Below, one piece after another: positions 8,710-64,000 of a stretch of DNA of 64,000 bases (positions are counted from its first letter, which is position 1; every line of letters starts with the position of its first letter). Under the pieces are notes generated by a model, which was not told the origin of the DNA, did no database searches, and saw nothing but the letters and a program-made list of their open reading frames with translations. The position numbers were made by a program, and so were the translations under genes. Source of the DNA: an uncultured Actinomycetota bacterium (GTDB taxonomy: Bacteria; Actinomycetota; Acidimicrobiia; Acidimicrobiales; Palsa-688); assembly GCA_963757175.1 (NCBI GenBank), contig CAVWQR010000005.1:45205-109204 (forward strand), in the 5' to 3' direction.

Positions 8710-9076
8710 GACCGCAGACCGTAGTGGCGACGAAAATCCCCAGGCCCCGGCTCGGCCCGGCCCCGCCGGCGCGGCCGGTTGCGAGCTGTGCGAGGCGGCT
8801 CCCATCACCCGGTGGTGGCACGCCGACGACCTGTGCTGGATCGCCGACTGCGAGGCGTGCGACTCGCCCATGGTGGTGTGGCGCCGTCACGGTGCCGAGC
8901 CGCCCCCTGACGAGGTGACGACCATGCTCGAGCGGCTGGCGACCGTGGCCGACGCCCGCTTCGGTCCCGGCGGCTACCGGGTCGACCGGGTCATGCGCCA
9001 GATCCCCGACCACTTCCACGCCCACGCCCGGGACCGCAGCCGCTCCCGGTCGCTGTTCGCCGCGGGGGGCTCGTGA
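8708..9076 (+). CDS. small Cys-rich protein with HIT-like HxHxH motif
   Basis: Lies in the frame of ORF 8573..9076 from ATG 8708. 'CELCE...CWIADCEAC' looks like a zinc-ribbon and 'IPDHFHAHAR' is a histidine-triad-like motif. Its stop overlaps the next gene (GTGA). Confidence 0.55.
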   Translation: MTADRSGDENPQAPARPGPAGAAGCELCEAAPITRWWHADDLCWIADCEACDSPMVVWRRHGAEPPPDEVTTMLERLATVADARFGPGGYRVDRVMRQIPDHFHAHARDRSRSRSLFAAGGS

Positions 9077-9654
9077 CCACCGGCGCGACCGACGAGCTCG
9101 TCGGGCGCCTGCTGGTCGCCAATCCGCGGCTGGCGGACCCCAACTTCGACCGCAGCATCGTTCTCGTCCTCGCCCACGGCGACGAGGGTGCCCTGGGCGT
9201 GATCCTGAACCGTCCGAGCGACACTGCGGTCGCCGAGGCGCTGCCCGGTTGGGAAGAGGTCGCCTCCGCCCCCGCCACCGTGTTCGTGGGCGGCCCGGTA
9301 CAGCAGACCACCGTGATTGCCCTGGCCCAATCCACCGGGCCGGTGGCCACGAGCACCGACCCGGATACGGGGTGGGCGTCGGTCGCCGGCGACGTGGGCA
9401 CCATCGACCTCGACCTCGGCCCCGACGAGGCGGCCCAGCGGGTGGCGGGCCTGCGCGTGTTCGCCGGCTACGCCGGCTGGGGGCCCGAGCAGCTGGAGAG
9501 CGAGATCGCCGCCGGCGGATGGTTCGTCGTCGACGGTGAACCCGGCGACGGGCTGACGTCGGATCCGGCGTCGCTGTGGAAGCAGGTGCTGCGGCGGCAG
9601 CGGTCGGATCTCGCCCTGGTCGCCGCCTATCCCGACGACCCCGACATGAACTGA
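9073..9654 (+). CDS. YqgE/AlgH family protein (UPF0301)
   Basis: ORF 9073..9654. 'GRLLVANPRLADPNFDRSIVLVLAHGDEGALGVILNRP' and 'VFAGYAGWGPEQLESEI..G.W' are family signatures. Confidence 0.85.
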   Translation: MTTGATDELVGRLLVANPRLADPNFDRSIVLVLAHGDEGALGVILNRPSDTAVAEALPGWEEVASAPATVFVGGPVQQTTVIALAQSTGPVATSTDPDTGWASVAGDVGTIDLDLGPDEAAQRVAGLRVFAGYAGWGPEQLESEIAAGGWFVVDGEPGDGLTSDPASLWKQVLRRQRSDLALVAAYPDDPDMN

Positions 9655-53487: not shown

Positions 53488-55626
53488 TCACCCCGTCGGT
53501 GCGGGGAGCGGGGTGTCCTCGGACAGGCCGATGCGGCGGTGGAAACGGCGCAGGGGCGCCGGCGACCACCAGTTGGCGTCTCCGGCGAGGCGCATGAACG
53601 CGGGCACGAGGACGCCGCGCACCAGGGTGGCGTCCACCAGGATGGCGAGCCCGGTGCCGATCCCGAACAGCTGGATGAAGCTCACCCGCGACAGGGCGAA
53701 GGCGAAGAACGACACGGCCAGGATGCCCGCCGCCGTGGTCATGATCCTTCCCGTGCGGGCCAACCCGCCGACCACCGCCTCCTCGTTGGAGGCGCCGGCG
53801 ACGTGGAGCTCCTTGATGCGCGACAGCAGGTAGACCTCGTAGTCCATGGACAGTCCGAAGGCGATGCAGAACAGCAGCACGGGCATGGCGGTGTTGGTCG
53901 GTGACGGGGTGAAGCCGAGCAGACCCGACAGGTGCCCCTCCTGGAAGATCCACACCATGGCGCCGAGCACCGCGGTCAGGTTGAGGGCGTTGAGGACCAG
54001 CGCCTTGATGGGCAGGACCACGCTGCCGGTGAACAGGAACAGCACCACGAAGGTGACGAGGACGACCAGGGCCACGGCGAGAGGGATGCGGCTGGCCAGG
54101 TCGTGCTTCTGGTCGACGAAGGAGGCGGCCTGGCCGCCCACGTAGGCCGTGGTCCCCGCAGGCGGCGGCAGGGCGCGCGCCTCGTGGACCAGGTTCGCCG
54201 CCGCCCCGCTGAGCGGGTCCGGGGCGATCACGGCCGAGAACCACGTGGCCTCGGGGCTCTGATGCTCGGTCAGGGACACGACTCCCGGCAGCCGGGCGAT
54301 GGACGCGCCGTAGCGGGCGGCGGCGGGCGGGCTGAGCGCCGACGAGGTGACCACGTCGAGCGTGTCGTTGGCGCCGCTGGCGAAGCCGGCGCGCACCGCG
54401 GTGTCCACCTGGCGGGCCGGGGTCGACGCCGGGACCACCCGGTCGTCCGGCGGGCCGAAGTGGACGCTCAGGAACGGCGTTCCCACCGCCAGCAGGAGGA
54501 TGAGCACGGGCACGCCGGCGGCGACCGGCCGGCGCATGACCGCCTGGCCCACCCGCCGCCAGAACGGCGACTCGACGTCGCGCGTCAACGCCCGCCGGCG
54601 GATGGGCGCGGCGTTCACCCGCTCGCCGAGGAGCGCCAGCACCGACGGCAGGACGATCACCGCAGCCAGGGTGCCGACCACGACCACGGCCACGCCGGCG
54701 TAGGCGAACGAGCGCAGGAAGTAGATGGGGAACACCAGCAGGGTGGCCAGGGCGGCGGCGACGGTCGCGGCGGAGAACACCACCGTGCGACCGGCCGTCT
54801 CCACCGTGCGCCGGACGGCGTCGGGCGGGGCCAGCCCGGCGCCGAGCTCCTCCCGGTAGCGGTTGACGATCAGCAGGGCGGAGTCGATCCCCAGACCCAG
54901 CCCCATGGCCGTGGTCATGTTGAGCGAGTAGGTGCTCACGTCGGTGAACTCCGACAGGCCGAACAGCACCGCCAGGGTGGCCAGGATGGCGCACACGCCG
55001 GTGATGAGCGGGAGCAGGGCGGCCACCACCGACCCGAACGACAACAGCAGCAGCACCATGGTGATGGGAACGGCGAGGCCCTCGGCCTTGGCCAGGTCCT
55101 TGCCGATCTGGGTGGAGATGGCGTTGTTGACCGCCGACGTACCGCCGGCGCCCACGGTGACCGGCCCCCCGGCGCCGGCGCCGACGGTGTGATGGCTGAC
55201 CAGCGCCTTGGTCCGGGTGGCCACCTGCTTGTCGGTGCCGGCCACGTCGACGATCACCAGGGCCTGGCGCCCGTCGTGGCTGCGCAGCTGGGGGGCGTGG
55301 GTGGCCCAGTAGGAGGTAACGGCGGCGACGCCGGGCTGGCCGGTCAGGCTGGCCGCCAGCTGGTCGCCGGCGGCGGCGACCGCAGGGGAGTCCACGCTGC
55401 CCTGGCGGGCGGTGACCAGGAACACCAGGTTGGGGGCGGCCTTGAAGTCGGCGTCCAGGCGGTTGGCCACCTGTTGGGAGGGCGACGACGGGCTGGTGAA
55501 GCCGGCGCCGAGCAGGCGGCCGGGGGCGCGGATGCCCACGGCGGCGCAGATGATGAGCAGCACCCCGGCGACGAGCAGGACCCGCTTGGGTCGGGCGGTG
55601 ACGAGGTGGCCGATGCGTGCGAACAC
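53488..55626 (-). CDS. MMPL family RND-type transporter
   Basis: ORF 53488..55626, 712 aa and intact. It has the twofold repeat of TM bundles ('LGLGIDSALLIVNRYREE' and 'FGLSMDYEVYLLSRIKE') typical of MMPL proteins. Confidence 0.9.
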   Translation of the reverse strand: MFARIGHLVTARPKRVLLVAGVLLIICAAVGIRAPGRLLGAGFTSPSSPSQQVANRLDADFKAAPNLVFLVTARQGSVDSPAVAAAGDQLAASLTGQPGVAAVTSYWATHAPQLRSHDGRQALVIVDVAGTDKQVATRTKALVSHHTVGAGAGGPVTVGAGGTSAVNNAISTQIGKDLAKAEGLAVPITMVLLLLSFGSVVAALLPLITGVCAILATLAVLFGLSEFTDVSTYSLNMTTAMGLGLGIDSALLIVNRYREELGAGLAPPDAVRRTVETAGRTVVFSAATVAAALATLLVFPIYFLRSFAYAGVAVVVVGTLAAVIVLPSVLALLGERVNAAPIRRRALTRDVESPFWRRVGQAVMRRPVAAGVPVLILLLAVGTPFLSVHFGPPDDRVVPASTPARQVDTAVRAGFASGANDTLDVVTSSALSPPAAARYGASIARLPGVVSLTEHQSPEATWFSAVIAPDPLSGAAANLVHEARALPPPAGTTAYVGGQAASFVDQKHDLASRIPLAVALVVLVTFVVLFLFTGSVVLPIKALVLNALNLTAVLGAMVWIFQEGHLSGLLGFTPSPTNTAMPVLLFCIAFGLSMDYEVYLLSRIKELHVAGASNEEAVVGGLARTGRIMTTAAGILAVSFFAFALSRVSFIQLFGIGTGLAILVDATLVRGVLVPAFMRLAGDANWWSPAPLRRFHRRIGLSEDTPLPAPTG

Positions 55627-55733: not shown

Positions 55734-56477
55734 ATGACGGATGCCCGGCCCGACCCGGAGCTGGACGCCGCCGACCTGCCCGGCCGGCGCCAGCGGGTGC
55801 GCAACGCCACCGTGGCCGAGATCAAACGGCTGGCCTGGGACCAGATCGCCACCGGCGGGCCCGCCGCCCTGTCGCTGCGCGCCCTGTCGCGCCAGATGGG
55901 CATGACCGGATCGGCCATCTACCGCTACTTCTCGGGGCGAGAGGCGCTGCTGACCGCCTTGATCACCGACGGCTTCGCCTCGCTGGCCGACGCCCTCGAA
56001 GCCGCCGAGGCCGGCCTGGACGACGAGGTGGACGCGGCCGAGCGTTGGCTGGGGACGGCGCGGGCCTACCGGAGCTGGGCCAAGGCCCACCCGACCGAGT
56101 ACGCGCTGATCTTCGGAACCCGCTCGCCACACGTCGAGGACCCGGGCGAGGCGGTCCAGCGCCAGCACCGTCGCGGCGTCGACGTGCTGTTCCGGGTCAT
56201 GCAGTCCTGCGTGGCCGAGGGCCGCGCCGACCTGGCCGAGCAGGAAGCCACGCTGACCCCGGCGCTGCGGGCGCAGCTGGAAGCGTGGCGGCGGGGCGAC
56301 GCCCTCGACCTGCCGGCGGCGGCGCTGGCCGGGTGCATGACGGCGTGGACCCAGCTGCACGGGATGCTGTCCCTGGAGCTCTTCGGCGGCTTCCCGCCGT
56401 GGCTCCAGCCCCTCGACGAGCTGTTCGACCAGCAGATGCGCCACGTCGTGGCGCGCATCGGCGTCAGAACCGGGTGA
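55734..56477 (+). CDS. TetR/AcrR family transcriptional regulator
   Basis: ORF 55734..56477. The HTH is 'ATVAEIKRLAWDQIATGGPAALSLRALSRQMGMTGSAIYRYFSGREALL' and there is a 'WTQLHGMLSLELFG' C-terminal motif. It is divergent from the MMPL gene. Confidence 0.85.
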   Translation: MTDARPDPELDAADLPGRRQRVRNATVAEIKRLAWDQIATGGPAALSLRALSRQMGMTGSAIYRYFSGREALLTALITDGFASLADALEAAEAGLDDEVDAAERWLGTARAYRSWAKAHPTEYALIFGTRSPHVEDPGEAVQRQHRRGVDVLFRVMQSCVAEGRADLAEQEATLTPALRAQLEAWRRGDALDLPAAALAGCMTAWTQLHGMLSLELFGGFPPWLQPLDELFDQQMRHVVARIGVRTG

Positions 56478-57359: not shown

Positions 57360-58228
57360 CCTCTCTGCGCACGCCCGGCGCGGTCGACGATACCGGCCCG
57401 TCGGCGGCCTTCTCGGCGCCGCACTCCTCTCCGTCGGGGCGGTGGCGTGCGGGAGCGGCAGCGCCCATCGGCACGGCGCCGCCCCCGGCCCCGGCCCCGC
57501 CCGCCACGTCCGGCACCACGGCCACCACCACGGCCACCACAGTCCCGGCCACGGTGCCCGGCATCACCACGCCGCCGGCGACGCCGCCGCCCACCACGGC
57601 GACCGTCGGCGCCACCACCGCGGCGGCGCCGACGACGGCGCCACCCACGACCGCGGCGGCGGCCTTCTCGGCCACCACCAGCCCCGTCACCGCCGCCGAC
57701 GTGCCCGCCACGTGGCGGCCGGGGTGCCCGGTGAGCCCCTCCCAGCTGGTGATGCTGCACCTGAGCTACTGGGGCTTCGACGGCCAGGCCCACCAGGGCG
57801 CCATGGTCGTCAACGCCGCCGTCGGCGACCAGGTGACCGGCATCTTCCGCACCCTGTTCAATGACCGCTTCCCGATCTTCGAGATGGTTCCCGAGGACTT
57901 CTACGGCGGCAACGACAACGCCGCCGCCGCGGCCGACGACACCTCCGGGTTCAACTGCCGCGACGCGGTGGCGCCGGGCCCGCCGCAGTGGTCAGTGCAC
58001 GCCTTCGGCGAGGCCATCGACGTCAACGACGTGCAGAACCCCTACGTCGACGGGTCCACCGTCATCCCGCCCGCCGGGTCGGCCTACCTCGACCGGTCCG
58101 ACGTGCGCCCGGGCATGGCCGAGCCGGGCGGACCGCTCAACCAGGCGTTCGCCGCCGCCGGCTGGCAGTGGGGCGGGCGCTGGGCGACGGGCACCGACTA
58201 CCAGCACTTCTCGCTCACGGGCGGCTGA
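57358..58228 (+). pseudogene. M15-family peptidoglycan peptidase (D,D-carboxypeptidase-like), frame broken and start unclear
   Basis: The signal/lipobox-like 'RRYRPVGGLLGAALLSVGAVACGSGSA' is in the frame of ORF 57136..57864. The Pro/Thr/Ala linker and catalytic domain are in ORF 57554..58228 ('SVHAFGEAIDVNDVQNP', 'WQWGGRW...DYQHFS'). The break is near 57465. I see no canonical start codon in frame near 57358. Confidence 0.65.
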
Positions 58229-58725
58229 CCGCCTCGGCGGACACGAACCAGTTGTGGCCGAACGGATCCCGCACCTTGCCCATGCGGGTGCCGTAGGCGT
58301 CGGCCACCGGCCGGAGGATCTCGGCGCCGGCGGCGGCCGCGGCGGCGACCACGGCGTCGGCGTCGGTCACGGTGAGGTACAGCTGCACGGTGGTGGCGCC
58401 GAGGGAGCTCGGGTTGCGGACGTCCTCGGGCGGGTGCTCGCCGGCGACGCGGACGATGCTGTCACCGATGGCGAGCTCGGCGTGGCCGACGCTGCCGTCG
58501 GGCATGACGATGGGCTCGCCGACCAGGCGGGCGCCGAACGCCCGCTGGTAGAAGTCGATGGCGGCCCACGGGTCGTCGACGGAGAGGTAGGTCTCGACCC
58601 GGGCGATGGTCGGGAACCGAGGGGAAAGACGACGCCAGGCGCCGGCGGAGCTCCTCGGCGAACTCGGCCCTCGGAGCCAACGGGGCGCCGTCGCAGCCGC
58701 AGGACGCGTCGAACGGATCAGCCAT
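58215..58725 (-). pseudogene. VOC (glyoxalase/bleomycin-resistance fold) protein with 'DPFDA' N-terminal peptide, frame broken as assembled
   Basis: ATG 58725 gives 'MADPFDASCGCDGAPLAPRAEFAEELRRRLASSFP' (ORF 58462..58725). It continues with 'FPTIARVETYLSVDDPWAAIDFYQRAFGA...GKVRDPFGHNWFV' (frame of ORF 58215..59204). The break is near the G-run 58621-58624. Confidence 0.7.
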
Positions 58726-59204
58726 CGTCGGAGCTCTCTTCGTAGGCGCGCCGGAAGGCGACGCGCGCCCGGACCAGCAGCGCTTCGGTGGCGTGCACGG
58801 TGCGACCCAGCTGCTCGGCCACCTCGGGGACCGGGAGGCCGTCGAGGTAACGCAGGGTCAGGGCGGCGCGGTGGTGGCCACCGAGGCGGGCCAGCACCTC
58901 GTGGGCGCGGGCCCGGTCGAGGGGGGCGTCCCACGGATCCTCGGCCTCGGCCGCCTCGGCTTCCAGACGGTTCCACCGCCGTTCTTCGCGTTCGGTCCGC
59001 CGCCAGTGGTCGACCAGCTTGTGCCGGGCCACGCCGATGAGCCAGCGCACGCTGAGATCGGGGGGCGGTTGGCGCACGGCCGCCAGGAACGTCTCCGCGG
59101 TCAGGTCCTCGGCCGTGGCCTGTCCCCGCAGCGGGGGAGCAGGTACCGTAGACCTCGGGGAGCGCCCGGGGGTAGAGCGCCAGGAGCGGCTGGTGCGCCT
59201 CCAC
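58718..59204 (-). pseudogene. ECF-type RNA polymerase sigma factor, two frame breaks as assembled
   Basis: GTG 59204 gives 'VEAHQPLLALYPRALPEVYG'. About 9 codons follow in a second frame ('YLLPRCGDR'). The 58718.. frame continues with 'ATAEDLTAETFLAAV', 'WLIGVARHKLVDHWRR' and 'AALTLRYLDGLPVPEVAEQLGRTVHATEALLVRAR'. The breaks are near 59145 and 59119. Confidence 0.75.
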
Positions 59205-59966
59205 GCCCGTATCATCGCTCGTCGATGCCGCCCTCCGACGGGCCTTCTCCTAGCTCCCGCCCCCGCCGGCCGCTCGGGGAGGTGGTTCGAAGCCATCGCC
59301 GACCACGCCGGCGCCGCCTACCTGCGCTACTCGTTCACCAAGGGAACCGACCAGGAGGTGGGCTTCCTCGTCGACACCCTCGGCCTGCGCCCCGGGCAGC
59401 GGGTCCTCGACGTCGGCTGCGGCCCCGGCCGCCACAGCCGGGCCCTGGCCGAGCGGGGCCTGTGGGTGGTGGGCCTGGACATCTCGGCCTCGTTCCTCGC
59501 CATGGCGGGCGAGGGGCACTGGACGCGTGGCGACGCCCGACGGCTGCCTTTTCCCCACTCCTCCTTCGACGCGGCGATCTGCTTGTGTCAGGGCGGCTTC
59601 GGCCTGCTGGGCGGGATCGACGACGTCGCCGTCATCGACGAGCTGGCCCGCGTGCTGCGCTCGGGCGCGGTCGCCGCCGTGTCCGCCTTCTCCGCCTACT
59701 TCGCCGTCCGCCACCTCGAGGACGGCGACACCTTCGACGCCGCCCTCGGCGTGAACCACGAGCGGGCCGCCGTGCGCAACCCCGCCGGCGACGAGGCGTC
59801 GTTCGACCTGTGGACCACGTGCTTCACGCCTCGCGAGCTGCGGCTGGTGGCGGCCGGGGCCGGCTTCTCGGTCGAAGGTCTGTGGGCCGTCGCCCCCGGC
59901 GCCTACGCCGCCCGTGCGCCCGATCTCGACCACCCGGAATGGCTGCTGGTGGCCCGGAAGCCGTGA
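59193..59966 (+). CDS. class I SAM-dependent methyltransferase (start uncertain)
   Basis: Lies in the frame of ORF 59019..59966. 'YLRYSFTKGTDQEVGFL' and 'RVLDVGCGPGRHSRALAERGLWVVGLDIS' (motif I) are present. The first in-frame candidate near the homologous region is GTG 59193. An ATG at 59225 in another frame would need one indel in the G-run 59276-59279. Confidence 0.7.
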   Translation: MRLHARIIARRCRPPTGLLLAPAPAGRSGRWFEAIADHAGAAYLRYSFTKGTDQEVGFLVDTLGLRPGQRVLDVGCGPGRHSRALAERGLWVVGLDISASFLAMAGEGHWTRGDARRLPFPHSSFDAAICLCQGGFGLLGGIDDVAVIDELARVLRSGAVAAVSAFSAYFAVRHLEDGDTFDAALGVNHERAAVRNPAGDEASFDLWTTCFTPRELRLVAAGAGFSVEGLWAVAPGAYAARAPDLDHPEWLLVARKP

Positions 59967-60068
59967 CCGCGACCCGGTGTAGCATTGTCGCGGCGAACCG
60001 TTCGCCCCGGCGCCGCCCACGACCGCAAGCGAGCAGCGTCCCCGCCCGGAAAGAAGGCAACCGACCGC

Positions 60069-61463
<1,395 letters not shown>

Positions 61464-61471
61464 CCGCCGCC

Positions 61472-61768
61472 TCAGCGGCCGGAGATCGACTCCTCCGGGA
61501 ACTCCCCGTCGAGGAGCGCCCCGGTCTGGCCCAGCAGCTGGCGGATCTGCTCGGCCGGATAGCGGCGGTGGCCACCCGGTGTCCGCACCGACGGGATGCG
61601 CCCGCGCCGGGCCCACTCCGACACCGTCCGCTCCGACACCTGGAACAGGGCGGCGACGTCAGTGGTGCGTAACAGCTGGCTGTCCAGCCCGGCGGGAACG
61701 TCGGGGCCGAAGAGCGTGGCCAGCAACTGTCGGCGCAGCGCTTCCGGTGTCGGTTCGGTCATCAGCAT
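61472..61768 (-). CDS. helix-turn-helix (excisionase/MerR-like) DNA-binding protein
   Basis: ORF 61472..61768. 'LLRTTDVAALFQVSERTVSEWARRGRIPSVRTPGGHRRYPAEQIRQLL' matches the excisionase-type HTH pattern. Confidence 0.7.
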   Translation of the reverse strand: MLMTEPTPEALRRQLLATLFGPDVPAGLDSQLLRTTDVAALFQVSERTVSEWARRGRIPSVRTPGGHRRYPAEQIRQLLGQTGALLDGEFPEESISGR

Positions 61769-61943
61769 CTGCCCTCTCGCTGGTGCGCGCGACCGTCCCG
61801 CTCTCGGTCCTCATGTCCACCCTGGCCGTTCGGGGCAAACAGGGCAATGGCCCAGGGGAGCTATTTGTGCGCGAGGCGAGCTAGTACGGAAGGACCAGAA
61901 GAGGAGGGTTCTCACGGCAGCCGGGCGGCTAGGTTCGCCGCCC

Positions 61944-62561
61944 ATGCTGCTCGTCGGGCTCACCGGAGGTATCGGCTCGGGCAAGTCGACCGTGGCCGAC
62001 GCACTGGCCCAGCGGGGCGCGGTCGTCGTCGACGCCGACCGTATCGCCCGGGAAGTGGTCGAGCCCGGCGGCCGCGCCTACGGACCGGTGGTCGAGCGCT
62101 TCGGCCCGGCTGTCCTCGACGCCGACAAGCGCCTCGACCGGGGCGCGCTCGCCGGCGTGGTGTTCGCCGACGAGGCCGCCCGCCGGGACCTCGACGCCAT
62201 CACCCACCCGGCCATCGGCCAGGTGATGCTCGAGCGGGTCGCCGAGCACGCCGACACCGACCGGGTGGTGGTGCTGGACATCCCCCTGCTGACGCCGAAG
62301 ACCCGCGACCGCTGGCCGTTTGCGGGCGTGATCGTCGTGGATGCCCCCGTGGAGGTCGCCGTGGAGCGGCTGGTGCGCTTCCGGGGCTTCGACGAGGCCG
62401 ACGCCCGGGCCCGTATCGGCGCCCAGCTCGGCCGGGAGGAGCGCCGGTCGCTGGCCGACGTGGTCATCGACAACGCCGGCGACCGCGAGGCCCTCGACGC
62501 CCAGGTCGACCGCACGTGGGCGTGGATCGGCAGCTTGGACGCGGCCGGCGGTCAGGCCTGA
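61944..62561 (+). CDS. coaE: dephospho-CoA kinase
   Basis: Lies in the frame of ORF 61596..62561 from ATG 61944. The P-loop 'MLLVGLTGGIGSGKSTVA', 'VVDADRIAREVVEPG', 'AITHPAI' and 'VLDIPLL' are present. Confidence 0.9.
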   Translation: MLLVGLTGGIGSGKSTVADALAQRGAVVVDADRIAREVVEPGGRAYGPVVERFGPAVLDADKRLDRGALAGVVFADEAARRDLDAITHPAIGQVMLERVAEHADTDRVVVLDIPLLTPKTRDRWPFAGVIVVDAPVEVAVERLVRFRGFDEADARARIGAQLGREERRSLADVVIDNAGDREALDAQVDRTWAWIGSLDAAGGQA

Positions 62562-63421
62562 TACAGGTAGAAGAAGGTCTCCTGGTCGTCGGTGCACTCC
62601 GCGCTCCACCCGTAGGGCTGCAGCTCGGGCTCGGTCGCGGTGCCGCCGGCGGCCTCCACCCGCCGCACCGCGGCGCGGATGTCCTCCACCCGGTACATGG
62701 GCACGAGGCGCGGCCGGTCGTGGCCGCCGTGCATGCCGGTCATGGGCGCGGTATCGACGGGCCCCCAGCCGTCCTCCACGTGGCCGGGCTCGAAGGTCCA
62801 ACCCAGGACGTCGCCGTAGAAGCGGCGGGCCACCGACGAGTCCCCCACCTCCATGGTGATGTAGGCCAGGTCGCCGGCCTCGACACCGTTGGCCGCCGGT
62901 CGCGGGCGGCGACCGGTAGCCGGGAGCTGGAAGGCGGCGAAGCGCACCCCTTCGGGATCGGTGGCCATGGCGGTCAGGCCCCACGGCTCCTGGGTGGGCG
63001 CCTCCGCCTGACCGCCGGCGTCGACGATGCGCTCGACGGTCTCGGCGATGTCGTCGACGGCATAGGCGGCCATCAGCGTGCTGCGCTCCACCCCGCCGGC
63101 GAAGCCGTGGTCGATGCCGCCGGGAGTCGCCGCCTGGCGGTGGCCGGTCTCGGGCCACCCGAGCACGGCGGAGAAGAAGCGCCGGGCACGCGTCTCGTCG
63201 GGCACCCACAGGGAGGTGTAGCCGACGTCGCCGTGGCGGATCGGGTCGGAGGTGGCGGCGTTGGCGGCTTCGGACGTGACGGGATCGGTCAGGTCGGACA
63301 CGGTGACTCCTCGGGGTAGGGAAAGCGACCGCTGGACGCGGACGCGCAGCTGGGCGGTGAAGGTGGGGTCGGGATCGACGGGCTCGTCGGGGGCGCGCAG
63401 GGCGTCGAAGGGATCAGGCAT
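62552..63421 (-). CDS. two-domain VOC (glyoxalase fold) protein with 'DPFDA' N-terminal peptide
   Basis: ORF 62552..63421. The N-terminus 'MPDPFDALRAPDEPVDPDPTFTAQLRVRVQRSL' is followed by two VOC modules ('GYTSLWVPDETRARRFFSAVLGW' and 'LAYITMEVGDSSVARRFYGDVLGW'). The start lies 8 nt inside the sigma gene. Confidence 0.8.
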   Translation of the reverse strand: MPDPFDALRAPDEPVDPDPTFTAQLRVRVQRSLSLPRGVTVSDLTDPVTSEAANAATSDPIRHGDVGYTSLWVPDETRARRFFSAVLGWPETGHRQAATPGGIDHGFAGGVERSTLMAAYAVDDIAETVERIVDAGGQAEAPTQEPWGLTAMATDPEGVRFAAFQLPATGRRPRPAANGVEAGDLAYITMEVGDSSVARRFYGDVLGWTFEPGHVEDGWGPVDTAPMTGMHGGHDRPRLVPMYRVEDIRAAVRRVEAAGGTATEPELQPYGWSAECTDDQETFFYLYQA

Positions 63422-63968
63422 CGGGCGGTGCCTCGTTCGTGTAGTCGCGCCGGAAGGCGATCCGGGCCCGCACGAGCAGCGCCTCGGTGGCGTGCACGGT
63501 CCGGCCCAGGACGTCGGCGACCTCGGCGACGGGGAGATCGTCGACGTAGCGGAGGGTGAGCGCGGCCCGGTGATGGGGCGACAGGCGGGCCAGCGTGGCC
63601 CGGGCGCTGAGGACGTCGAGCTGGGCGTCCCACGGGTCCTCGACGACTGCGTCCTCGGCGGCGCGGTCCTCGGCGGCCAGGGCGGCCAGGCGGCGCTCCT
63701 CGCGTCCCCGGCGGCGCCAGTGGTCGACCAGCTTGTGGCGGGCCACGCCCACCAGCCACGGGACCGACACCGTCAGCGGATCGTCCCGGCGCACGGCGTC
63801 GACGGCGGCGAGGAACGTCTGAGAGGTGAGGTCCTGGGCCTCGGCCCGGTTGCCGCAGCGGGCCAGGAGGTAGCCGTACACGCGGGGTACGGCGTGGTCG
63901 AACACGTCGACCAGCGCGGCGCCGGCGCCGCCCGCGGGGTTGCCGGCGTCGGCCGGCTGGGCGTTCAC
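63414..63968 (-). CDS. ECF-type RNA polymerase sigma factor
   Basis: ORF 63414..63968 with a GTG start. Region 2 has 'VPRVYGYLLARCGNRAEAQDLTSQTFLAAV' and 'WLVGVARHKLVDHWRR'. Region 4 has 'AALTLRYVDDLPVAEVADVLGRTVHATEALLVRAR'. Confidence 0.85.
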   Translation of the reverse strand: MNAQPADAGNPAGGAGAALVDVFDHAVPRVYGYLLARCGNRAEAQDLTSQTFLAAVDAVRRDDPLTVSVPWLVGVARHKLVDHWRRRGREERRLAALAAEDRAAEDAVVEDPWDAQLDVLSARATLARLSPHHRAALTLRYVDDLPVAEVADVLGRTVHATEALLVRARIAFRRDYTNEAPPDA

Positions 63969-64000
63969 GACCCAAGTGTCGCTCGGCGGGGCACCGGTCC

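Follow-up and report, generated by a model that had tools for sequence, protein, structure and literature searches.

A conserved gene pair of an ECF125 sigma factor and a VOC-fold protein with a candidate sigma-binding peptide in Actinomycetota

We analyzed 64,000 nucleotides of contig CAVWQR010000005.1 from an uncultured bacterium of the Acidimicrobiales (Actinomycetota; assembly GCA_963757175.1), and this whole stretch is referred to as the window. At its end, on the reverse strand, the gene of a sigma factor with extracytoplasmic function (ECF) overlaps that of a protein with the vicinal oxygen chelate (VOC) fold. The two genes are called cassette A here, and a second, paralogous cassette with disrupted reading frames (cassette B) lies 4 kb away. 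Judged from its sequence, the locus is a member of the sigma factor group ECF125. In several orders of Actinomycetota, the sigma factor and the VOC gene were found to be kept together as a unit, along with their overlapping junction, and the N-terminal 45-aa peptide was confined to those VOC proteins whose genes come after such a sigma gene. It is rather probable that this peptide is the sigma-binding part of an anti-sigma factor that is soluble. The coordinates of the features are given in Table 1.

The Sigma Factor Gene and Its Junction With the VOC Gene

Pfam matched the sigma factor with Sigma70_r2 at residues 23–89 and with Sigma70_r4_2 at residues 123–169, and there was no N- or C-terminal extension. 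No subfamily model of NCBIfam reached its cut-off, the best being the BldN-family model (80 bits versus a cut-off of 206). In a PDB search, the closest solved relative was BldN, from the BldN-RsbN complex. Cys38, which belongs to an RCG motif in sigma2, was conserved in 98% of 189 sequences. The CX4C motif in sigma4 that has been described for ECF125 subgroup s1 was absent from the window sigma factor, and its sigma4 contained no Cys at all.

A first-pass annotation, made from the sequence alone, had placed the end of the sigma gene 8 nt inside the VOC open reading frame (ORF). Both the coordinates and the sequence of this overlap were confirmed: the VOC ATG was located at 63419–63421 and the sigma TGA at 63414–63416, which results in the overlap ATGCCTGA. 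A GAGG element resembling a Shine-Dalgarno sequence was present at 63431–63434, 9 nt 5′ of the VOC ATG.

Conservation of the Sigma-VOC Pair

One genome per species was scanned for relatives of the VOC partner, and 80 loci were obtained. The N-terminal peptide and an orthologue of the window sigma factor (50–69% identity) were both detected by tblastn in 73 of them, and in nearly all of these paired loci the sigma gene ended at or overlapped the start codon of the peptide. Among the 73 loci, 59 had an overlap of exactly 8 nt between the sigma stop and the VOC start (ATGNNTGA or GTGNNTGA), nine had one of 4 nt and two had one of 1 nt, and a GGAG- or GAGG-like element was found 5′ of the VOC start in 64. 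The remaining seven loci contained VOC homologues without the peptide, and this sigma factor was not located within 4 kb of them. The adjacency was far beyond chance, with peptide and sigma factor always occurring together. A lack of enrichment beyond this genome had been named in the first-pass annotation as a refutation, and the enrichment was present.

The pair and its junction were kept in Acidimicrobiales, Mycobacteriales, Streptosporangiales, Nocardioidaceae, Geodermatophilaceae, Frankiaceae, and Baekduia, and all 80 loci and all named homologues belonged to Actinomycetota. These data showed that the sigma factor and the VOC gene are a unit conserved across several orders of this phylum with a conserved overlapping junction, and that the 45-aa peptide occurs only on VOC proteins following such a sigma factor. 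The mean column identity of the peptide was 0.74, compared with 0.66 and 0.76 for the two VOC domains.

When the ORFs flanking the 73 paired loci were clustered, neither a conserved third gene nor a canonical anti-sigma gene was found on either side. The families obtained were all generic and varied in position; short-chain dehydrogenases, for example, occurred in 17 of the 73 loci. The closest relative (locus L081) shared 75% protein identity, and its sigma gene was preceded by a divergently oriented gene encoding 167 aa with no Pfam match and no features of an anti-sigma factor. The first-pass annotation had left room for a canonical anti-sigma gene upstream of the sigma gene, beyond the edge of the window, and neither the clustered flanking ORFs nor the closest relative contained one.

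The VOC partner had at least 979 database relatives, nearly all of them from Actinomycetota. These relatives came in two lengths, ~290 aa and ~420–450 aa, and in the longer ones a further VOC domain, which was PhnB-like, was inserted after the peptide and before the two-domain body. The three-domain partner (peptide, PhnB-like domain and two VOC domains) was present in 56 of the 73 loci, and the form seen in the window (peptide and two VOC domains) in 15. A profile of the peptide alone obtained 454 matches among 1.84 billion representative proteins, and in nearly all of the ~55 listed matches of at least 140 aa that were inspected, the peptide was followed by a VOC domain. Their architectures comprised the peptide followed by a PhnB-like domain, by two domains or by three domains. 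Apparent natural fusions of the sigma factor and the peptide were also encountered among these matches, and they were rejected as frameshifted gene calls.

Architecture of the VOC Partner

In the VOC partner, a linker of low conservation joins the 45-residue peptide to two VOC domains. The peptide had been described as ~45 aa long in the first-pass annotation, which was retained. Its statement that two VOC modules follow was corrected: there are two VOC domains, which contain four beta-alpha-beta-beta-beta modules, and Rv0577 has the same arrangement. Pairs of such modules form the domains of the VOC superfamily. The partner belongs to it by its Pfam matches (Glyoxalase and Glyoxalase_6), by the four modules in the AlphaFold2 secondary structure and by its Foldseek hits. 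The AlphaFold2 model, based on an alignment of 120 sequences, was a soluble two-domain VOC fold with a predicted local distance difference test score (pLDDT) of 91.5.

Residues 1–60 of the partner contained no His and no Cys, and thus no HxxxCxxC zinc-binding anti-sigma motif. Pfam gave no zf-HC2 or RskA-type match in the protein, which did not resemble class I zinc-binding anti-sigma (ZAS) factors with their four-helix domain of ~80–90 residues, and no hydrophobic membrane segment was found. The absence of the zinc motif, of a transmembrane helix and of a C-terminal extension of the sigma factor, all noted at first pass, agreed with the sequence, Pfam, and AlphaFold2.

The peptide matched no Pfam family. 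AlphaFold2 predicted three helices in it, a short one at residues 6–9, an amphipathic one of 16 residues at 19–34 and another short one at 41–44, with pLDDT values of 70–86. In the helix at 19–34, Phe21, Leu25, and Arg26 were invariant and Arg28 was near-invariant. In the DPF motif, Asp3-Pro4 was invariant, whereas some members had Leu or Met in place of Phe5.

A motif in the linker between sigma2 and sigma4, DPW(D/E)xxL (DPWD, 63629–63640), resembled the motif DPF(D/E)xL of the peptide (DPFD, 63404–63415), and MAFFT repeatedly placed the peptide onto the sigma linker and the first helix of sigma4. This likeness between two short motifs could be chance or mimicry.

The best structural match of the VOC body was Rv0577 (3oxh; Foldseek E 1.3e-16, template modeling score 0.63/0.71), which was also the best match among PDB sequences. 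The body was also close to AbxF, and the optional middle domain of the longer relatives was closest to At5g48480, TioX, and PhnB-type binding proteins. The NCBIfam equivalog model of KbpA (NF053614) scored 51.8 bits over residues 116–287 against a cut-off of 250, which indicated a relative and not an equivalog. VOC metalloenzymes such as glyoxalase I and extradiol dioxygenases have His/Glu metal ligands on strands 1, 4, 5 and 8. By eye, the first metal-ligand positions of the window protein were occupied by the invariant Tyr68 and Tyr187 and not by His, and the last strands ended in Gln and not in Glu. Because the canonical His of the first ligand position is replaced by Tyr and Glu is absent from the last strands, these residues hint that the VOC body is a binding protein rather than a metalloenzyme. 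Cys276 was invariant in 120 sequences. Its counterpart in domain 1, Cys153, was conserved in at least 90% of the relatives and is Ala in the window protein.

Promoter of the Sigma-VOC Operon

The sequence in front of cassette A reaches the edge of the window and contains a partial promoter, with GGA at 63998–64000, a 16-nt spacer, CGACACTT at 63974–63981, 5 nt and the GTG at 63968. The complete arrangement, GTCGGA-N16-CGACACTT-gggtc-GTG, was present in the closest relative, and the stretch from CGACACTT through GTG was identical to that of the window. The word CGTCGGA was strongly enriched in front of the sigma genes: 54 of 69 loci had it in the 250 nt upstream, against 2 in control sequence. 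The consensus aligned on this word consisted of an A-rich block, ~13 nt, CCGTCGGAG, 16 nt, CGAC(g/a)AT(a), 5–6 nt and the start codon.

The pattern GTCGGA-N15-17-CGA(C/T) was located upstream of the sigma gene in 57 of 72 loci, 34–35 nt from the start codon in 53. The remaining 1.32 Mb gave 31 matches, several of which were loci with a mis-called start. The only exact promoter match in the 64-kb window was at 59215–59240, in front of cassette B. The promoter data showed that the sigma gene has a group-specific promoter at a fixed distance from its start. The geometry suggests that GTCGGA is the −35 element and CGAC(g/a)AT the −10 element, rather than CGTCGGA lying at −10 as published. It also suggests that the sigma mRNA is leaderless, because the start codon is fixed 35 nt from the −35-like block and ~6 nt from the −10-like block.

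Relationship to Group ECF125

Group ECF125 is 100% Actinobacteria and contains 577 proteins (Casas-Pastor et al., NAR 2021, supplement; bioRxiv version). The gene at position +1 of its sigma factors encodes a soluble glyoxalase/bleomycin-resistance/dioxygenase protein with 0 transmembrane helices, sigma2 carries a Cys, and the predicted promoter is "AAAA in -35 and CGTCGGA in -10" (Casas-Pastor et al., 2021). For the association of sigma factor and partner, credit was given there to ECF125 as originally defined by Huang et al. (2015). Putative ECF125 anti-sigma factors have been listed from Mycobacterium smegmatis, M. phlei, M. fortuitum, and M. gordonae (Casas-Pastor et al., 2021, supplement). 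The ECF Hub describes the +1 proteins as putative soluble anti-sigma factors and as similar to the anti-sigma factors of ECF121.

The locus shares these properties: a sigma factor of sigma2 and sigma4 only with a Cys in sigma2, an origin in Actinobacteria, a soluble VOC protein at +1 that is homologous to the listed partners, and the CGTCGGA promoter. The promoter word was exact in front of cassette B; cassette A showed GGA-N16-CGACACTT only, and the full motif was present in its closest relative. The listed mycobacterial partners all start with the same peptide (DPLxVL...PDPxFxARLRARLExAL). In BLASTP, the window VOC protein shared 47% identity with M. smegmatis YP_885800.1 over the 203 residues of the two-domain body (E 1e-51), and the N-terminal peptides aligned. 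The minimal sigma factor, the soluble VOC-fold +1 partner with its peptide and the promoter word were thus the same as in ECF125, and nothing essential differed. The window copy has the shorter partner with two VOC domains instead of the commoner three-domain one, and it has no Cys in sigma4. ECF56/SigG, which induces glyoxalase genes, was also considered, and it was rejected owing to its SnoaL-type C-terminal extension and different promoter.

The promoter word that we found independently is the published one, and the pairing of sigma factor and VOC protein as well as the anti-sigma idea have already been published in silico, so that this locus is a rediscovery. The first-pass annotation had placed the VOC protein where a recognizable anti-sigma factor would be expected, but the ECF Hub already lists such proteins as putative ECF125 anti-sigma factors, and the hypothesis made at first pass coincides with the published one. 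The first-pass annotation had also known of no experimentally characterized sigma regulator of the VOC type, and here our literature search agreed: no experimentally studied VOC- or glyoxalase-type anti-sigma factor was found in it. A 2022 review stated that experimental data are lacking.

Proposed Mechanism and Its Alternatives

We consider it probable that the VOC partner is a soluble anti-sigma factor, with the peptide sequestering the sigma factor, the VOC body sensing a cytoplasmic small molecule or electrophile, and the operon under positive autoregulation. The locus would then be a self-contained and self-regulated module of two genes. The operon would be transcribed by its own sigma factor as a leaderless mRNA, and translational coupling would keep the amounts of sigma factor and VOC protein roughly equal. 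Chiefly through its helix at 19–34 and the DPF motif, the peptide would bind sigma2/sigma4 and keep the sigma factor off RNA polymerase, much as short anti-sigma domains of class II/III do. The cytoplasmic sensor would be the VOC body, which is Rv0577/KbpA-like, and binding of a small molecule or covalent modification would free the sigma factor, which would then amplify the expression of the pair. Candidates for the signal would be quinones, electrophiles or antibiotics of the aromatic type, and these might act via Cys276 of the VOC protein and Cys38 of the sigma factor; the conserved Cys on both partners may constitute a thiol or electrophile switch.

Known anti-sigma factors offer partial models. 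In the BldN-RsbN complex (ECF121, PDB 6dxo), the long helix of RsbN is clamped between sigma2 and sigma4, and short N-terminal helices contribute as well (PMC6101532). The pattern predicted for the peptide here, a short helix, a 16-residue amphipathic helix and a short helix, is compatible with this. It is plausible by analogy that the helix at 19–34 together with Asp3-Pro4 is a minimal counterpart of the long RsbN helix. However, RsbN is a membrane protein with a binding domain of 91 residues, whereas the candidate in the window has 45 residues on a soluble protein. The class II domains of CnrY and NepR, like the window peptide, are ~30–45 residues long, helical and zinc-free, and they wrap the sigma factor or a sigma-like domain. 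They show no sequence similarity to the peptide; CnrY is membrane-anchored, NepR switches partners with PhyR, and neither has a sensor with an enzyme fold. ChrR, the soluble anti-sigma factor of RpoE (ECF11), has an N-terminal sigma-binding part and a C-terminal fold of the ligand- or metal-sensing type, which is the layout proposed here. In ChrR a cupin is combined with a class I domain that binds zinc (HxxxCxxC), whereas the window protein has no zinc motif and a VOC fold.

Rv0577 and KbpA have the same two-domain VOC fold, but without the N-terminal peptide and without linkage to a sigma factor. By analogy, the VOC fold appears to have a precedent as a protein-binding regulator, because the PDB entry of Rv0577 bears the title 'kinase inhibitor homolog'. 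The kinase AfsK is bound and inhibited by KbpA.

Several points weigh against an anti-sigma function. The profile of the peptide matched no solved anti-sigma factor among PDB sequences at E ≤ 10, including RsbN in 6dxo, and it matched no Pfam family. The AlphaFold model of one natural frameshift fusion (P0253), in which sigma helix 1 was missing and the peptide was without alignment, had a predicted template modeling score of 0.37 and a peptide pLDDT of ~40–70, and this weak test, with alignment rows covering the sigma part only, yielded no confident contact between sigma factor and peptide. The first-pass claim that the arrangement is functional and the peptide sigma-linked was supported by co-occurrence, junction, conservation and the lack of any other conserved neighbor, and the interaction of sigma factor and peptide is a prediction. 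Moreover, the VOC body, a well-conserved region of 230 aa, could equally be the effector of the operon rather than its sensor. Only two motif-bearing promoter sites were seen in the 64 kb, and no regulon was seen beyond the operon.

The effector role leads to an alternative that we regard as unlikely, yet worth weighing: the VOC protein would be the main output of the sigma factor, detoxifying or sequestering a ligand, the sigma factor would be controlled via Cys38, transcription or proteolysis, and the peptide would serve the folding, oligomerization or turnover of the VOC protein. The large and strongly conserved VOC body fits this, as do VOC relatives that include small-molecule binders and enzymes (TioX, enediyne-sequestering proteins, AbxF) and the ECF56 sigma factors, which are known to induce genes of the glyoxalase family. 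An anti-sigma domain was also not detectable by sequence, and the P0253 fusion model, for what its incomplete sigma factor and unaligned peptide allow, showed no confident docking. Against this, the peptide was confined to the sigma-linked copies, being present at 73 of 73 such loci and at none of the seven others. It is as conserved as the domains of the catalytic fold, and the exact 8-nt junction, kept across orders, is typical of stoichiometric partners. The roles of effector and anti-sigma factor could, besides, coexist.

Tight co-translation and strict co-occurrence would fit any obligate partner, including a positive one, and BldN, the closest solved relative of the sigma factor, is poorly soluble without its partner (PMC6101532). 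The VOC protein might on these grounds be a co-sigma factor, stabilizer or chaperone required for the activity or solubility of the sigma factor, but this appears quite improbable, as no precedent for an ECF sigma factor that needs an activator protein at +1 was found in the reviews consulted and such a gene order usually represents a sigma factor followed by its anti-sigma factor. That the adjacency is fortuitous or specific to one genome is practically untenable: it was refuted by the 73 of 80 species-level genomes keeping both pair and junction, and the pairing has been published as the defining trait of ECF125.

Returning to the anti-sigma factor, we put forward a bolder version only tentatively, and it is doubtful that all of it holds. 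Here the partner would be a ligand-gated 'sense-and-sequester' anti-sigma factor, in which an essentially single-helix, zinc-free element of ~45 residues tethers the sigma factor to a VOC body that binds drugs or electrophiles. Ligand binding or alkylation of Cys276 and of Cys38 in the sigma factor would free the latter. The freed sigma factor would act mainly on its own operon with its leaderless mRNA, and the cell would thereby respond with overproduction of the toxin-binding protein, a logic analogous to that of TipAL/TipAS.

Cassette B and Neighboring Genes

In cassette B (58215–59204), promoter and GTG start were retained, as was the junction ATGGCTGA. Its sigma gene was broken into three frames, which covered the N-terminus to EVYG, then YLLPRCGDR and finally residues 41–176, with the breaks lying within the first ~40 codons. 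The breaks looked like 1-nt losses in short homopolymers. Genes near cassette B were intact, namely rpsA (59985–61463) and the gene of an MMPL transporter (53488–55626, reverse strand). Cassette B is probably a pseudogene or a local assembly error, as far as its reading frames can tell. The first-pass annotation had taken the paralogous cassette as an argument for function. The junction and the promoter were indeed kept, but the sigma gene was spread over three frames and the VOC gene over at least two, so that, unless the reads show otherwise, the cassette gives no evidence of function.

Cassettes A and B together carried the domains that 56 of the 73 relatives unite in one three-domain protein. 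A TetR-family regulator (55734–56477, forward strand), divergent from the MMPL-type transporter gene, was located ~1.7 kb from cassette B. According to the ECF Hub, a TetR repressor is a recurrent neighbor of ECF125 subgroup 1.

An ORF for a CoaE-like dephospho-CoA kinase (61596–62561, forward strand) converged on the VOC gene of cassette A, and their 3′ ends overlapped by 10 nt. CoaE was found downstream of the cassette in the closest relative as well, with a PIN-domain gene between them. Between rpsA and coaE there was an ORF of 98 aa (61472–61768, reverse strand) with an excisionase/MerR-like helix-turn-helix (…FQVSERTVSEWARRGRIPSVRTPGGHRRY…), and the contig of the closest relative held a similar HTH_17/MerR gene (8793–9080).

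Table 1. Features of the two sigma-VOC cassettes in the window.
Feature	Position	Strand	Basis or remark
Partial promoter, cassette A, ending at the window edge	63969–64000	-	Sequence and closest relative
ECF sigma factor, GTG start, 184 aa	63414–63968	-	Pfam; group ECF125
8-nt sigma/VOC overlap ATGCCTGA, translational-coupling junction	63414–63421	-	Sequence
VOC partner gene, ATG start, 289 aa	62552–63421	-	ORF, Pfam, AlphaFold2
N-terminal peptide, residues 1–45, MPDPFDALRAPDEPVDPDPTFTAQLRVRVQRSLSLPRGVTVSDL	63287–63421	-	Candidate sigma-binding (anti-sigma) element
VOC domain 1, residues ~61–170	62912–63241	-	Pfam Glyoxalase_6 and Glyoxalase, AlphaFold2, Foldseek to 3oxh
VOC domain 2, residues ~183–289 including the stop codon, with Cys276	62552–62875	-	Pfam, AlphaFold2, Foldseek
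Cassette B promoter and start	59202–59240	-	CGTCGGA 59234–59240, 16-nt spacer, CGATGATA 59210–59217, 5 nt, GTG 59202–59204
Cassette B ECF125-type sigma factor, disrupted	58718–59204	-	Three frames
Cassette B partner: degenerate N-terminal peptide (MADPFDA...), single PhnB-like VOC domain in another frame	58215–58725	-	

Implications for Group ECF125

ECF125 is a sizeable group (577 sigma factors in 2019), and thousands of metagenomic relatives were found here. It occurs throughout Actinobacteria, and fast-growing mycobacteria, M. smegmatis among them, have it too. To the published hypothesis, which was stated in one line, our analysis added several details: which peptide exactly is linked to the sigma factor, the conservation of the coupling junction, a correction of the promoter geometry that would imply leaderless transcription, and the conserved Cys on both partners. 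Should an anti-sigma role of the VOC partner be confirmed, the known anti-sigma elements would gain one that is soluble, zinc-free and very short and is joined to a fold that binds small molecules. Synthetic circuits would moreover gain a compact and probably orthogonal triple of sigma factor, anti-sigma factor and promoter.

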